IMG/VR virus record: IMGVR_UViG_2558860170_000007
DNA from: a virus
Lineage: Duplodnaviria > Heunggongvirae > Uroviricota > Caudoviricetes
Reading direction: 5' to 3' (one strand)
Length of the DNA: 48,271 nt
Below, one piece after another: positions 43,715 to 48,271 of the stretch. The notes beneath the pieces are model-generated. The model was not told where the DNA came from. It saw only the letters and a list, made by a program, of their open reading frames with translations, and made no database searches. Positions within the stretch are counted from its first letter, which is position 1, and each line of letters starts with the position of its first letter. A program made the position numbers and the translations under genes.

Positions 43715-43776
43715 CGCTTGCAGTAACGGCGAAAGGGGCAATGACAGCGCTGCCATGTCGACAAGAACTGGAATAG
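43715..43776 (+). pseudogene. cscK: Fructokinase CscK, 3'-terminal fragment (last 20 codons)
   Basis: Frame ...ALAVTAKGAMTALPCRQELE-stop directly after the IS1 right end; begins with the 9-bp sequence CGCTTGCAG that is also found (inverted) beside the IS1 at 48052-48060. Confidence 0.6.
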
Positions 43777-43847
43777 TGAGAAGTAAACGGCGAAGTCGCT
43801 CTTATCTCTAAATAGGACGTGAATTTTTTAACGACAGGTAGGTAATT

Positions 43848-45095
43848 ATGGCACTGAATATTCCATTCAGAAATGCGTACTATCGTTTTGCATCCAGTTA
43901 CTCATTTCTCTTTTTTATTTCCTGGTCGCTGTGGTGGTCGTTATACGCTATTTGGCTGAAAGGACATCTAGGATTGACAGGGACGGAATTAGGTACACTT
44001 TATTCGGTCAACCAGTTTACCAGCATTCTATTTATGATGTTCTACGGCATCGTTCAGGATAAACTCGGTCTGAAGAAACCGCTCATCTGGTGTATGAGTT
44101 TCATCCTGGTCTTGACCGGACCGTTTATGATTTACGTTTATGAACCGTTACTGCAAAGCAATTTTTCTGTAGGTCTAATTCTGGGAGCGCTCTTTTTTGG
44201 CCTGGGGTATCTGGCGGGATGCGGTTTGCTTGACAGCTTCACCGAAAAAATGGCGCGAAATTTTCATTTCGAATATGGAACAGCGCGCGCCTGGGGATCT
44301 TTTGGCTATGCTATTGGCGCGTTCTTTGCCGGCATATTTTTTAGTATCAGTCCCCATATCAACTTCTGGTTGGTCTCGCTATTTGGCGCTGTATTTATGA
44401 TGATCAACATGTGTTTTAAAGATAAGGATCACCAGTGCGTAGCGGCGGATGCGGGAGGGGTAAAAAAAGAGGATTTTATCGCAGTTTTCAAGGATCGAAA
44501 CTTCTGGGTTTTCGTCATATTTATTGTGGGGACGTGGTCTTTCTATAACATTTTTGATCAACAACTTTTTCCTGTCTTTTATGCAGGTTTATTCGAATCA
44601 CACGATGTAGGAACGCGCCTGTATGGTTATCTCAACTCATTCCAGGTGGTACTCGAAGCGCTATGCATGGCGATTATTCCTTTCTTTGTGAATCGGGTAG
44701 GGCCAAAAAATGCATTACTTATCGGTGTTGTGATTATGGCGTTGCGTATCCTTTCCTGCGCGCTGTTCGTTAACCCCTGGATTATTTCATTAGTGAAGCT
44801 GTTACATGCCATTGAGGTTCCACTTTGTGTCATATCCGTCTTCAAATACAGCGTGGCAAATTTTGATAAGCGCCTGTCGTCGACGATCTTTCTGATTGGT
44901 TTTCAAATTGCCAGTTCGCTTGGGATTGTGCTGCTTTCAACGCCGACTGGGATACTCTTTGACCACGCAGGCTACCAGACAGTTTTCTTCGCAATTTCGG
45001 GTATTGTCTGCCTAATGTTGCTATTTGGCATTTTCTTCCTGAGTAAAAAACGCGAGCAAATAGTTATGGAAACGCCTGTACCTTCAGCAATATAG
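43848..45095 (+). CDS. cscB: Sucrose:H+ symporter CscB (LacY-family oligosaccharide/H+ symporter)
   Basis: 415 aa, 12 predicted TM helices, MALNIPFRNAYYRFASSYSFLFFISWSLWWSLYAIWLKGHLGLTG... recalled as CscB; it is separated from the 5' part of cscK and from the csc promoter. Confidence 0.85.
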   Translation: MALNIPFRNAYYRFASSYSFLFFISWSLWWSLYAIWLKGHLGLTGTELGTLYSVNQFTSILFMMFYGIVQDKLGLKKPLIWCMSFILVLTGPFMIYVYEPLLQSNFSVGLILGALFFGLGYLAGCGLLDSFTEKMARNFHFEYGTARAWGSFGYAIGAFFAGIFFSISPHINFWLVSLFGAVFMMINMCFKDKDHQCVAADAGGVKKEDFIAVFKDRNFWVFVIFIVGTWSFYNIFDQQLFPVFYAGLFESHDVGTRLYGYLNSFQVVLEALCMAIIPFFVNRVGPKNALLIGVVIMALRILSCALFVNPWIISLVKLLHAIEVPLCVISVFKYSVANFDKRLSSTIFLIGFQIASSLGIVLLSTPTGILFDHAGYQTVFFAISGIVCLMLLFGIFFLSKKREQIVMETPVPSAI

Positions 45096-45535
45096 ACGTA
45101 AACTTTTCCGGTTGTTGTCGATATCTCCCTATCCCTCAACCGGAAAATAATAATACTAAAGTGCTTAGCCCGGCTAATAATCACCTAATCCAAACGCCTC
45201 ATTCATGTTCTGGTACAGTCGCTCAAATGTACTTCAGATGCGCGGTTCGCTGATTTCCAGGACATTGTCGTCATTCAGCGACCTGTCCCGTGTATCACGG
45301 TCCTGCGAATTCATCAAGGAATGCATTGCGGAGTGAAGTATCGAGTCACGCCATATTTCGCTATCAGGATTCTGTGTGATGGTTACATCGCCCGGCCCAG
45401 GGCTGTTTAGTCATCAGCGCTTTCTGACAGTGCTGAGATTTCAACCTGTTGCAGTAAAAATGAGTAGATATAAGGCAAGTGTGCTGCCAAACCCATCTTT
45501 TACGGGGTGAAGGTAGATTTCGTTTGAAGGGTATC

Positions 45536-45550
45536 TGGTGTCCCCTGCAG
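45536..45550 (-). repeat. att-like copy of the argW 3' end (15 nt, CTGCAGGGGACACCA)
   Basis: Exact 15-nt match to the last 15 nt of argW (2635-2649) in inverted orientation; partial similarity extends a few more bases. Confidence 0.55.
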
Positions 45551-45623
45551 ACATCTACTTGAGGCGGCAGGGGATTGATTGGAATGCTGTTTTTTAGATT
45601 TGAAAAATATTTTACCCGCTATT

Positions 45624-45946: not shown

Positions 45947-46291
45947 TTAGTCCTTGCGTAGCTCGCTGATTCTTCTGTAAGTCTCTGGTGCTTTGTTCCC
46001 GTACGTCTTCATTTCAGACTTCAACAGAGCAACGAGTGAATCCCATTCGTTGAGGATTCCTTTGAATGCCGGAACGCGCTTTGCAACCTTGTCGAATGAA
46101 TCTCTGATTTCTGGAATCTGCTCAACAAGTGCAACGCATCGCCGAAAGTCTGCTGCGTCATGGGGAGCGCCGAAGTGATGACCATAGATATTCTTTTTCA
46201 GGCCACATGCGATTGAGGCAAGAGTTGCGCTACTGATGCCGACATCGCCAGTTGATTGCCATTTCAAAACCTTCATAGCCAAATCTGACAT
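45947..46291 (-). CDS. Hypothetical protein (114 aa), no family recognised
   Basis: ORF with plausible start; divergently arranged with the downstream membrane protein gene. Confidence 0.4.
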   Translation of the reverse strand: MSDLAMKVLKWQSTGDVGISSATLASIACGLKKNIYGHHFGAPHDAADFRRCVALVEQIPEIRDSFDKVAKRVPAFKGILNEWDSLVALLKSEMKTYGNKAPETYRRISELRKD

Positions 46292-46532
46292 TTCTTGTCT
46301 CCATAAAACAAAACTCGCCGTAGCGAGCTCAGATAAAAGAAATCCCCGTCAGTGCGAGGATGCTGTTCATTGCTGCTATACACTTTTTTGCTCTCAACGT
46401 AAGCGGTAGCCCATTCTGTTGGGTTGGTCAGTTGCTTTTAGGAAATGCTCTTTACCCCTTAAACGTCGGCTGAAAGAGCTAAAATCCATGCAAAAAATTT
46501 ACGCAATTTTGTGTATTATTGTGCAGTAAGTA

Positions 46533-47135
46533 ATGAGCTATTTTCTGTGCAAAAAATGGATGATAAATTTGTCCGGGGCAGGAAAAATTTTATGGGCGCT
46601 AAACATGAAAAAAGATTCGTATCCTTATTTGATTTGCATGACAGTTTCAGGGCTGATCTTTATTTTCCTTTTCTTCTGGTGGCGGGCAGATATCTACAGG
46701 GTCACGTTTCTTAATCAGAGTATATCCCACTATTACATTCTGTTTAGCATGGGAATAGCTTTTCTGTTATCTCTGTTTTGGGTTAAGAAGGGGATAGTAA
46801 AACAAAGCGGCTGGAAGAGTCTGTCAGCATACCTTAAGGTTTATGCAGGGATATGCATATTTTCTGGATTTTTTCTGATTATACCCCTTACAACACTAAC
46901 TTATTTTTTGCCTGGAGAGACATCGTCTTATGTTGCACCGTATCGGTATACTTCCGGTAGTTCAAAAAGTTGTTCTGGAGCTGAGGTGGATGACCCCGAT
47001 CTACATGAGAATATTCGCATTTGCTATCCGTATGGCAATTATGAGTACGATAATATTATCTATGTTGAAAAGAAAATTAATACATTAGGTGCGGTAGTGA
47101 CATATGCACAGACCGCGCGTGATGATACTGAATGA
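46533..47135 (+). CDS. Hypothetical membrane protein (about 4 N-terminal TM helices plus Cys/Tyr-rich C-terminal domain)
   Basis: 200-aa AT-rich ORF; start uncertain (alternatives at 46560 and 46605); C-terminal region contains ...CSGAEVDDPDLHENIRICYPYGNYEYDNIIYVEKK... Confidence 0.45.
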   Translation: MSYFLCKKWMINLSGAGKILWALNMKKDSYPYLICMTVSGLIFIFLFFWWRADIYRVTFLNQSISHYYILFSMGIAFLLSLFWVKKGIVKQSGWKSLSAYLKVYAGICIFSGFFLIIPLTTLTYFLPGETSSYVAPYRYTSGSSKSCSGAEVDDPDLHENIRICYPYGNYEYDNIIYVEKKINTLGAVVTYAQTARDDTE

Positions 47136-47283
47136 GATAGTATATAGCGGGCAAGTTTTAGTTAATTTATCGAGGTAATATAATTTACCTCGACTCGTTT
47201 ATTCTGGTATGAATATTTCGCTTTACGATCGATTTTTATCTGATGATATCATGCGGTTTTCATATACTGACTTACTGTCTTTT

Positions 47284-48051
47284 GGTAATGACTCCAACTT
47301 ATTGATAGTGTTTTATGTTCAGATAATGCCCGATGACTTTGTCATGCAGCTCCACCGATTTTGAGAACGACAGCGACTTCCGTCCCAGCCGTGCCAGGTG
47401 CTGCCTCAGATTCAGGTTATGCCGCTCAATTCGCTGCGTATATCGCTTGCTGATTACGTGCAGCTTTCCCTTCAGGCGGGATTCATACAGCGGCCAGCCA
47501 TCCGTCATCCATATCACCACGTCAAAGGGTGACAGCAGGCTCATAAGACGCCCCAGCGTCGCCATAGTGCGTTCACCGAATACGTGCGCAACAACCGTCT
47601 TCCGGAGACTGTCATACGCGTAAAACAGCCAGCGCTGGCGCGATTTAGCCCCGACATAGCCCCACTGTTCGTCCATTTCCGCGCAGACGATGACGTCACT
47701 GCCCGGCTGTATGCGCGAGGTTACCGACTGCGGCCTGAGTTTTTTAAGTGACGTAAAATCGTGTTGAGGCCAACGCCCATAATGCGTGCAGTTGCCCGGC
47801 ATCCAACGCCATTCATGGCCATATCAATGATTTTCTGGTGCGTACCGGGTTGAGAAGCGGTGTAAGTGAACTGCAGTTGCCATGTTTTACGGCAGTGAGA
47901 GCAGAGATAGCGCTGATGTCCGGCAGTGCTTTTGCCGTTACGCACCACCCCGTCAGTAGCTGAACAGGAGGGACAGCTGATAGAAACAGAAGCCACTGGA
48001 GCACCTCAAAAACACCATCATACACTAAATCAGTAAGTTGGCAGCATCACC
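47284..48051 (-). mobile_element. IS1 (768 bp), complete copy
   Basis: IRR GGTAATGACTCC from 47284, IRL (reverse complement) ending 48051; insB 47299..47802 and insA 47721..47996 on the minus strand; flanked at the IRL side by CTGCAAGCG (48052-48060). Confidence 0.95.
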
Positions 48052-48271
48052 CTGCAAGCGCTCCGCAACGTTGAGCGAGATCGATAATTCGTCGCATTTC
48101 TCTCTCATCTGTAGATAATCCCGTAGAGGACAGACCTGTGAGTAACCCGGCAACGAACGCATCTCCCGCCCCCGTGCTATCGACACAATTCACAGACATT
48201 CCAGCAAAATGGTGAACTTGTCCTCGATAACAGACCACCACCCCTTCTGCACCTTTAGTCACCAACAGCAT
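48052..48271 (-). pseudogene. cscK: Fructokinase CscK (PfkB family), 5' part truncated by IS1 and running off the window edge
   Basis: ...HFAGMSVNCVDSTGAGDAFVAGLLTGLSSTGLSTDEREMRRIIDLAQRCGALA- then the IS1 end; the GAGDAF motif is the PfkB-family signature; the reading frame enters from beyond 48271. Confidence 0.6.

Follow-up and report, generated by a model that had tools for sequence, protein, structure and literature searches.

The argW-csc region of Shigella sonnei

The DNA stretch analysed, 48,271 nucleotides long and called the window hereafter (IMG/VR record IMGVR_UViG_2558860170_000007), belongs to the chromosome of Shigella sonnei, of which it covers the argW-csc region. It hosts a lambdoid prophage integrated at argW, next to genes of the csc regulon for sucrose utilization. 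Where prophage and csc genes meet, two copies of the insertion sequence (IS) IS1 lie in opposite orientation. The left copy, denominated IS1a, is interrupted by an IS21-family element, while the right copy, IS1b, is complete. The two bracket an inverted segment of 3,569 bp (43715-47283), which carries the sucrose transporter gene cscB and the attR site of the prophage. The kinase gene cscK is split into two opposite pieces, one at each IS1 copy, and 9,253 bp of prophage DNA are missing next to the elements. An inversion plus a deletion, both mediated by IS1, are almost certainly at the origin of this arrangement.

Two Escherichia coli loci were used for comparison. The CEA224S locus (L001 in the coordinates given below) has an intact cscK and was the reference for the alignment of the cscK pieces; the collinear JNEC-KY177 locus (L004) was the reference for calling the inversion and the deletion. 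The gene order in JNEC-KY177 is dsdA, 'dsdX, cscR, cscA, cscK, cscB, torI, two unnamed open reading frames (ORFs), TraR, exo-bet-gam, immunity region, O, P, nin region, Q and the lysis, head and tail genes. Read in the orientation of the window, the ancestral order, still found in this strain, is argW-intS, late genes, Q, nin region, P, O, immunity region, gam-bet-exo, TraR, two unnamed ORFs, torI, attR, cscB, cscK, cscA and cscR.

Two pieces of cscK and a 9-bp repeat

The 3' end of cscK (43715-43776, + strand) directly follows IS1a, and aligns with L001 9001-9062. The other piece (48052-48271, - strand) adjoins IS1b and is cut by the end of the window; it aligns with L001 9009-8790 and matches the PfkB family of Pfam (8.4e-15). 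A prediction made earlier from the letters of the window, referred to below as the original prediction, had described the IS1 copies, the pieces of cscK and the 9-bp repeats that accompany them, and the positions that it assigned were all confirmed by sequence comparison. It erred in part on the extent of the pieces. The first was rightly placed and was called the last 20 codons of the gene; it consists of 2 nt, 19 codons and the stop codon. The second was rightly placed too, with its strand and its contact with IS1, and was called the 5' part; it is internal, and spans about codons 215-288.

The two pieces overlap by exactly 9 bp (L001 9001-9009) within the annotated kinase gene (8148-9062), and the same result is obtained against JNEC-KY177. 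Joined minus one copy of the overlap, they restore an uninterrupted frame, in which the last 90 CscK residues are identical to those of WP_001274887.1. The fragments thus align to an intact cscK and rejoin in a single frame, as had been foreseen, with no break at the joint.

The 9 bp are found once beside each IS1. The sequence CGCTTGCAG is located at 43715-43723 (+ strand; L004 36630-36638), and abuts the right inverted repeat (IRR) end of IS1a. The second copy lies on the - strand at 48052-48060, reads CTGCAAGCG on the + strand, and abuts the left inverted repeat (IRL) end of IS1b. On the + strand, CGCTTGCAG occurs a single time in the whole window; its reverse complement is found also at 25678, at an unrelated site. 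The probability that two IS-abutting 9-mers match by chance is about 4^-9 = 4e-6.

IS1a and IS1b

IS1b (47284-48051, - strand) is 768 bp long and terminates with the sequences GGTGATGCTGCCAACTTACTGAT and GGTAATGACTCCAACTTATTGAT. Both its size and its ends correspond to those of the IS1 family, which features elements of about 768 bp bounded by terminal inverted repeats that are imperfect and some 23 bp long. Its coding regions, insA (47721-47996) and insB' (47299-47802), match the Pfam families Zn_ribbon_InsA, HTH_Tnp_IS1 and DDE_Tnp_IS1 (5.9e-78), and the A6C motif for -1 frameshifting (AAAAAAC) is located at position 307 of the element. IS1b is 100% identical to the IS1 copies found in the window at 5430-6197 and 35336-36103. 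Members of the family duplicate 8-9 bp of target DNA. Accordingly, 9 bp of cscK are duplicated, in inverted orientation, at IS1a and IS1b, and a direct duplication of 8 bp flanks the copy at 35336-36103.

IS1a is on the + strand, and is found in two parts. The left part (40813-41043) corresponds to IS1 positions 1-231, includes the IRL end, and is 100% identical to the same positions of IS1b. The right part (43174-43714) corresponds to positions 228-768, includes the IRR end, and is 99.8% identical to IS1b. The only mismatch, at 43604 (IS1 position 658), is private to IS1a among the copies of the window, and is common to eight S. sonnei genomes. The element nested between the two parts (41044-43173, + strand) is 2,130 bp long, and has duplicated the 4 bp ATAT, found at IS1 positions 228-231. 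It encodes IstA (41145-42317, 390 aa) and IstB (42314-43114, 266 aa), both on the + strand, which match the Pfam families rve/Mu-transpos_C_2 and IstB_IS21 (2.5e-90), respectively. The insertion inactivates insA of IS1a, is present in all the eight S. sonnei genomes compared, and is probably later than the rearrangements described below.

Inversion of the segment between the IS1 copies and linked deletion

In the alignment to JNEC-KY177, window 13558-40813 corresponds to L004 1-23814 in forward orientation, with the tract 36104-40813 collinear with L004 19105-23814. Window 43715-47283 corresponds to L004 36638->33068 in reverse orientation, and window 48052-48271 to L004 36630-36849, again in forward orientation. 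Both flanks have therefore kept the orientation seen in E. coli, the prophage late region on the left and the upstream part of cscK on the right, and the segment between the two IS1 copies is turned around. It contains the 3' end of cscK, cscB, the attR core, torI and the two unnamed ORFs. In CEA224S, window 43715-47283 corresponds to L001 9001-12569 and window 48052-48271 to L001 9009-8790 on the opposite strand.

The prophage attachment sites provide additional evidence. The attR core CTGCAGGGGACACCA, a stretch of 15 nt that matches the 3' end of argW exactly, is found at 45536-45550 on the - strand, and is thus inverted relative to attL, at the end of argW (2635-2649, + strand). In JNEC-KY177 the core is on the + strand (L004 34803), in direct orientation relative to attL. 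Both the comparison to JNEC-KY177 and the orientation of attR thus bear out the inversion put forward in the original prediction.

The original prediction had not noticed the deletion, nor the further IS insertions in cscK beyond the window and the fixation of the event in S. sonnei, both treated below. The tract L004 23815-33067 (9,253 bp) is missing from the window, and with it the genes P, O, a ydaT-like gene, cro/cI-like genes, an ImmA-like gene, kil, gam, bet, exo, a DGQHR-domain gene and TraR. On the left, the last 29 bp of the replication gene P survive (40784-40812, - strand) and mark the edge of the deletion; their terminal tract TACCACTTC is in contact with the IRL end of IS1a. The annotated P gene spans L004 23785-24498 (- strand), and ETEC1731 agrees on the edge of the remnant. 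On the right, the IRR end of IS1b is adjoined by the flank CTGTCTTTT (47275-47283, + strand), which in JNEC-KY177 leads on into the TraR/DksA gene; the last aligned base is L004 33068, just before TraR. The deletion endpoints therefore match to the base the two IS1 ends that are not in contact with cscK.

A 3.57-kb segment that hosts an intact transporter gene and is enclosed by inverted IS1 copies could also be taken for an IS1-cscB-IS1 composite transposon, inserted from elsewhere. The outer flanks of such an element, TACCACTTC and CTGCAAGCG, form no direct target duplication, and the candidate was rejected. The 9-bp repeat is found at one inner and one outer end, and not at both outer ends; moreover, the segment is native to this neighbourhood in E. 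coli, and cscK continues across the junction. An origin by transposition of the whole unit is hence extremely improbable.

Conservation of the rearrangement

An exact look-up of the protein encoded by the 200-aa ORF (46533-47135) retrieved eight complete chromosomes featuring the gene order of the window, among which that of S. sonnei Ss046 (CP000038.1). In BLAST comparisons, window 36501-48271 gives with each of the eight loci a single collinear alignment, which runs through all four junctions and the nested IS21-family element. Over these 11.7 kb identity is 100% with CP026802.1, and ranges from 99.94 to 99.98% with the other S. sonnei genomes (99.95% with Ss046, CP000038). Two of the eight genomes have private extra insertions or duplications. 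CP022672.1 (L005 8959-9026) carries a 68-bp tandem duplication matching window 45442-45509, within the inverted segment. In CP109775.1 (L009 8680-9939) an additional IS3-family insertion is located between the 114-aa and the 200-aa ORFs, also within the inverted segment.

The protein encoded by the 200-aa ORF is indexed in 3,350 blocks, mostly located on contigs of 2-5 kb. Two of these contigs, L013 and L014 (3,551 and 3,540 bp), match window positions 43730-47280 and 43741-47280, and thus the segment between the IS1 copies, as expected of short-read assemblies, which break at repeats. Such assemblies cannot resolve the orientation of the segment. All the long S. sonnei contigs inspected (~26) exhibit a single orientation, and no flipped variant was found among them. 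The rearrangement is apparently fixed in S. sonnei.

A wrong joining of repeats, hiding what is really a simple IS1 insertion in cscK, was considered as well. Short reads would be of no help here, as the local junctions are the same in either orientation, and assemblies made from them break at both IS1 copies, as seen in L013 and L014. Nevertheless, the eight complete chromosomes, obtained from different strains in different laboratories, agree at the four junctions and on the asymmetric IS21-family insertion. The outer flanks, the P remnant and cscK, are contiguous in no reference, and the orientation of attR fits an inversion. It is hardly conceivable that the arrangement is an assembly artefact, a doubt that the original prediction had itself raised.

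Each of the four junctions was also searched in 5,426 complete E. coli genomes, and none was found. The IS1-cscK junction is similarly absent, in an exact-match scan, from the species-representative genomes of GTDB, among which S. sonnei has no separate representative. Other IS1 insertions are found nearby in two E. coli genomes. One is in NZ_OW968111.1 (about position 1441000), where the spacing of the matched pieces suggests a site about 150 bp further downstream, probably at the start of cscB. The second, an IS1X2 in NZ_CP180600.1 (about 949100-949400), is close to the 200-aa prophage ORF, at a different base. These independent insertions suggest that the argW-csc region has been repeatedly targeted by IS1.

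Origin of the rearrangement

The rearrangement has probably been produced by intramolecular replicative transposition of IS1, "trans" transposition accounting for the inversion and "cis" transposition for the adjacent deletion. The hallmarks of both have been described by He et al. (2015, mBio, PMC4471558), who report that this replicative route is used also by the IS1 family. In "trans", inverted IS copies are produced together with an inverted target duplication, each copy of which lies beside one IS; in "cis", an adjacent deletion starts from an IS end and no matching target duplication is left (PMC4471558). IS1a and IS1b are oppositely oriented and bracket DNA that is inverted, by comparison to JNEC-KY177 and by the orientation of attR, and the target repeats are inverted, one per IS1, at one IRR and one IRL end. 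The original prediction had read the inverted 9-bp repeats as the signature of an IS-mediated inversion, in accordance with the mechanism in PMC4471558.

The cases analysed by He et al. involve IS26, Tn4401 and the IS1-family element ISKpn14 (PMC4471558). As in these, inverted IS copies bracket an inverted segment, inverted target repeats are found next to different IS copies, one gene is split in two opposite pieces, and an adjacent deletion leaves IS ends that lack a matching target duplication. The S. sonnei rearrangement differs because the element is IS1, the duplication measures 9 and not 8 bp, the DNA is chromosomal rather than plasmidic, and the donor's own target duplication cannot be recovered, a deletion having occurred in addition.

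In the proposed mechanism an IS1 would have inserted in the region, its target being cscK or the 3' end of P. "Cis" intramolecular replicative transposition would have removed the 9.25 kb of prophage early genes beside the IS. "Trans" intramolecular replicative transposition would have attached the ends of IS1 at a cut staggered by 9 bp, made in cscK if the donor IS1 resided in the prophage, or in P if IS1 had first inserted simply in cscK. The latter step would duplicate IS1 in inverted orientation and flip the DNA comprised between donor and target, corresponding to 3.57 kb if the donor was in the prophage; two copies of CGCTTGCAG would result as inverted repeats, one beside each IS1. Two orders of events, each made of three IS1-catalysed steps, fit equally well. 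In one, insertion at the end of P would be followed by cis deletion up to CTGTCTTTT, and then by trans attack on cscK. In the other, simple insertion in cscK would be followed by trans attack on P, which would invert the DNA from P through the 3' end of cscK, and then by cis deletion from the IRR end of IS1b. The IS21-family element would have later inserted into IS1a, and an IS3-family element and IS4 into cscK, outside the window.

A different route leads to the same structure. IS1 could have simply inserted in cscK, and an independent IS1 could have inserted in inverted orientation in the prophage; a RecA-mediated crossover between the two would have inverted the segment, and a separate IS1-mediated deletion would have removed the early region. 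The end product would be identical at all four junctions. IS1 copies of 768 bp that are 99.9-100% identical are good RecA substrates, and S. sonnei hosts many IS1 copies, four of which are in this 48-kb window. The route is worth considering but is the less likely of the two, as it takes four events, against three for transposition alone, and as the uninverted insertion was not found among the E. coli genomes searched. Frequent recombination should furthermore give both orientations, whereas the long S. sonnei contigs show only one, and one-step transposition is held to be simpler for such patterns (PMC4471558). We infer that transposition, rather than later RecA recombination, made the inversion. 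Since a RecA crossover within IS1 leaves the four local junctions unchanged, there is no short sequence diagnostic of the flipped state.

Some observations weigh against replicative transposition, or do not help to support it. The sequences TACCACTTC and CTGTCTTTT are unrelated, and the other two IS1 ends thus do not display, in inverted form, the duplication made by the donor at its own insertion. The mechanism is not contradicted by this, as one copy would have disappeared with the 9,253-bp deletion. The searches brought out no intermediate genome, IS1 being at none of the four junctions in the 5,426 E. coli genomes. Moreover, the IS1 copies of the window are nearly identical, three being the same and IS1a having one private single-nucleotide polymorphism, so that parental and daughter copies cannot be told apart by sequence. 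For these last two reasons, the preference for transposition is based on parsimony and on the single orientation observed.

Deletion and inversion might also have occurred together. Two direct IS1 copies would have bracketed the 9.25-kb early region, and their inner ends would have attacked cscK, deleting the region and inverting 3.57 kb in one step. The analogue of this "inside-out" reaction is the "deletion-inversion" promoted by Tn10/IS10. A single reaction would explain both the deletion endpoints at IS1 ends and the inverted 9-bp repeat, and the inner ends required, IRR and IRL, are a legitimate pair. On the other hand two prior insertions are needed, which brings the total to three events with no gain in parsimony, and the junction searches in E. 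coli revealed no relative in which two IS1 copies bracket the early region. To our knowledge the pathway has been documented for cut-and-paste elements of the IS10/IS50 type rather than for IS1. We regard this origin as improbable, and retain successive replicative transposition events as the preferred explanation.

Adjacent deletions and inversions mediated by IS1 have reportedly been known since the classical work of Reif & Saedler 1975, Cornelis & Saedler 1980 and Turlan & Chandler 1995. Element and outcomes are said to be the same in these cases, with both types of rearrangement starting at an IS1 end. The classical cases were reportedly laboratory events on plasmids or in the gal and lac regions, whereas the one described here occurred in nature and has become fixed in a pathogen lineage.

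The argW prophage

The lambdoid prophage is located at argW (tRNA-Arg-CCU, 2575-2649), and intS (2775-3968) is at its left end. The gene torI, encoding the prophage excisionase and TorR inhibitor, is found at 45624-45824 on the - strand, and is identified by the RefSeq annotation of the collinear tracts L001 10910-11110 and L004 34529-34729. The two unnamed ORFs of the inverted segment encode proteins of 114 aa (45947-46291, - strand) and 200 aa (46533-47135, + strand). Both are annotated as hypothetical proteins in E. coli, and have no Pfam match.

We take this prophage to be of the KplE1 (CPS-53) type, which occupies argW and has intS at one end and torI at the other. It resembles KplE1 in that intS is found at attL, while torI adjoins attR and is close to the dsd/csc locus; it differs in the inverted orientation of attR and torI and in the loss of the early region. 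As attR and torI now have the opposite orientation with respect to attL and intS, and immunity, replication and recombination genes have been lost, the prophage is immobilised, and cannot undergo normal excision. This consequence was not part of the original prediction.

cscB and sucrose utilization

The csc genes are recognizable as such. A LacY-family CscB and a PfkB-family CscK are encoded in the window, and a GH32 gene (cscA), a LacI-family gene (cscR) and dsdA are found in the S. sonnei sequences extending past it; the position between argW and dsdA is that of the csc regulon, and the operon is disrupted. In CP026802.1 (L011) cscK extends 71 bp beyond the end of the window before it is interrupted. 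A 1,249-bp IS3-family element (L011 11811-13059) is inserted in the gene with a 3-bp duplication, and a 1,426-bp IS4 (L011 13630-15055) in codons 2-5, with a 12-bp duplication. As a result of the IS1 rearrangement and of the IS3-family and IS4 insertions cscK is in four pieces, and is destroyed. Beyond it, cscA (477 aa), cscR (331 aa) and dsdA follow intact in L011.

The sucrose:H+ symporter gene cscB (43848-45095, + strand) is intact. It encodes a protein of 415 aa, which matches the Pfam family LacY_symp (2.6e-193) and is identical to CscB from E. coli CEA224S. In the cscKB operon cscB is directly downstream of cscK, and is transcribed from a promoter in the cscA-cscK intergenic region, controlled by CscR and cAMP-CRP (PMC3938415). 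According to the same work, E. coli W cannot use sucrose without cscB (PMC3938415). Given this operon structure and the inversion, cscB is separated from its promoter and from upstream cscK, as had been proposed, and now points away from the promoter. A consensus scan of the interval 43000-45400 detected no sigma-70-like promoter, 3.7 being expected by chance, which is weak evidence. From its sequence context cscB is predicted to be silent. Low-level read-through from istA/istB, or from insB' of IS1a, all oriented as cscB, is possible, and speaks against complete silence.

Data from Shigella isolates are in line with the prediction that sucrose uptake via csc is probably inactive. In the passages on csc by Stephens et al. 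(2024, Front Microbiol, PMC11251922), more than 99% of the S. sonnei genomes carry cscA, and only 1% are sucrose-positive (Suc+) in API20E. The Shigella csc loci are there reported as non-functional and defective: cscK and cscB either are absent or contain an insertion of IS1, IS3 or IS4 (PMC11251922). Species and locus are the same as here, and so are the intact cscA and cscR, the involvement of IS1, IS3 and IS4 in cscK or cscB, and the sucrose-negative phenotype. The same passages speak of genes "interrupted" or missing, and give no explicit account of the 3.57-kb inversion, of the inverted 9-bp repeats or of the linked 9.25-kb deletion; in contrast to that wording, cscB is here itself intact, and only displaced. 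A literature search on S. sonnei, IS1 or insertion sequences and sucrose gave only papers unrelated to the csc locus.

The disruption of the csc locus by insertion sequences in Shigella is therefore already known from the csc passages of the 2024 report (PMC11251922), and the type of rearrangement is textbook knowledge. The description at the base level of the inverted 9-bp repeat, the 3.57-kb inversion and the linked 9.25-kb deletion may be new in text, and involves no new principle. Its significance is small, and consists in base-level detail on a published inactivation of csc by insertion sequences. It provides a clean natural example of inversion and deletion driven by IS1 and fixed in a whole pathogen lineage, in which one IS would both silence an intact metabolic gene, cscB, by displacement and lock a prophage. 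In practical terms, annotation pipelines will call cscB "intact" in spite of the loss of its promoter.

The 3.57-kb segment may conceivably still flip at low frequency by RecA recombination, and act as a switch re-orienting cscB and attR/torI; we find this very unlikely. The long contigs leave room for flipping in fewer than about 1 in 25 genomes. If it occurs, flipping could underlie rare or late sucrose-positive S. sonnei variants, or rare prophage excision. A flip alone would not restore the operon, because IS1, the IS3-family element and IS4 would remain between promoter and cscB, and cscK would stay broken.

Other insertion sequences

The two remaining IS1 copies of the window differ in their flanks. 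The copy at 35336-36103 (+ strand) lies within the direct 8-bp duplication CCAATTTT, and results from a simple insertion at a site that separates the lysis genes from the prophage porin (ompC/nmpC-like) gene. The copy at 5430-6197 (- strand) has no target duplication, being flanked by CACCCAATT and AGCCTTCTT. This suggests that a further IS1-linked deletion or rearrangement took place close to the intS/tail-fibre end of the prophage. Just upstream of this copy there is a partial IS3-family transposase ORF (4265-4630). Another IS3-family element (31280-32553, - strand) includes a 301-aa ORF with an rve domain and a 136-aa ORF with an HTH_Tnp_1 domain, and resides in a part of the window (30561-34167) that lacks collinearity with the E. 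coli reference prophage.

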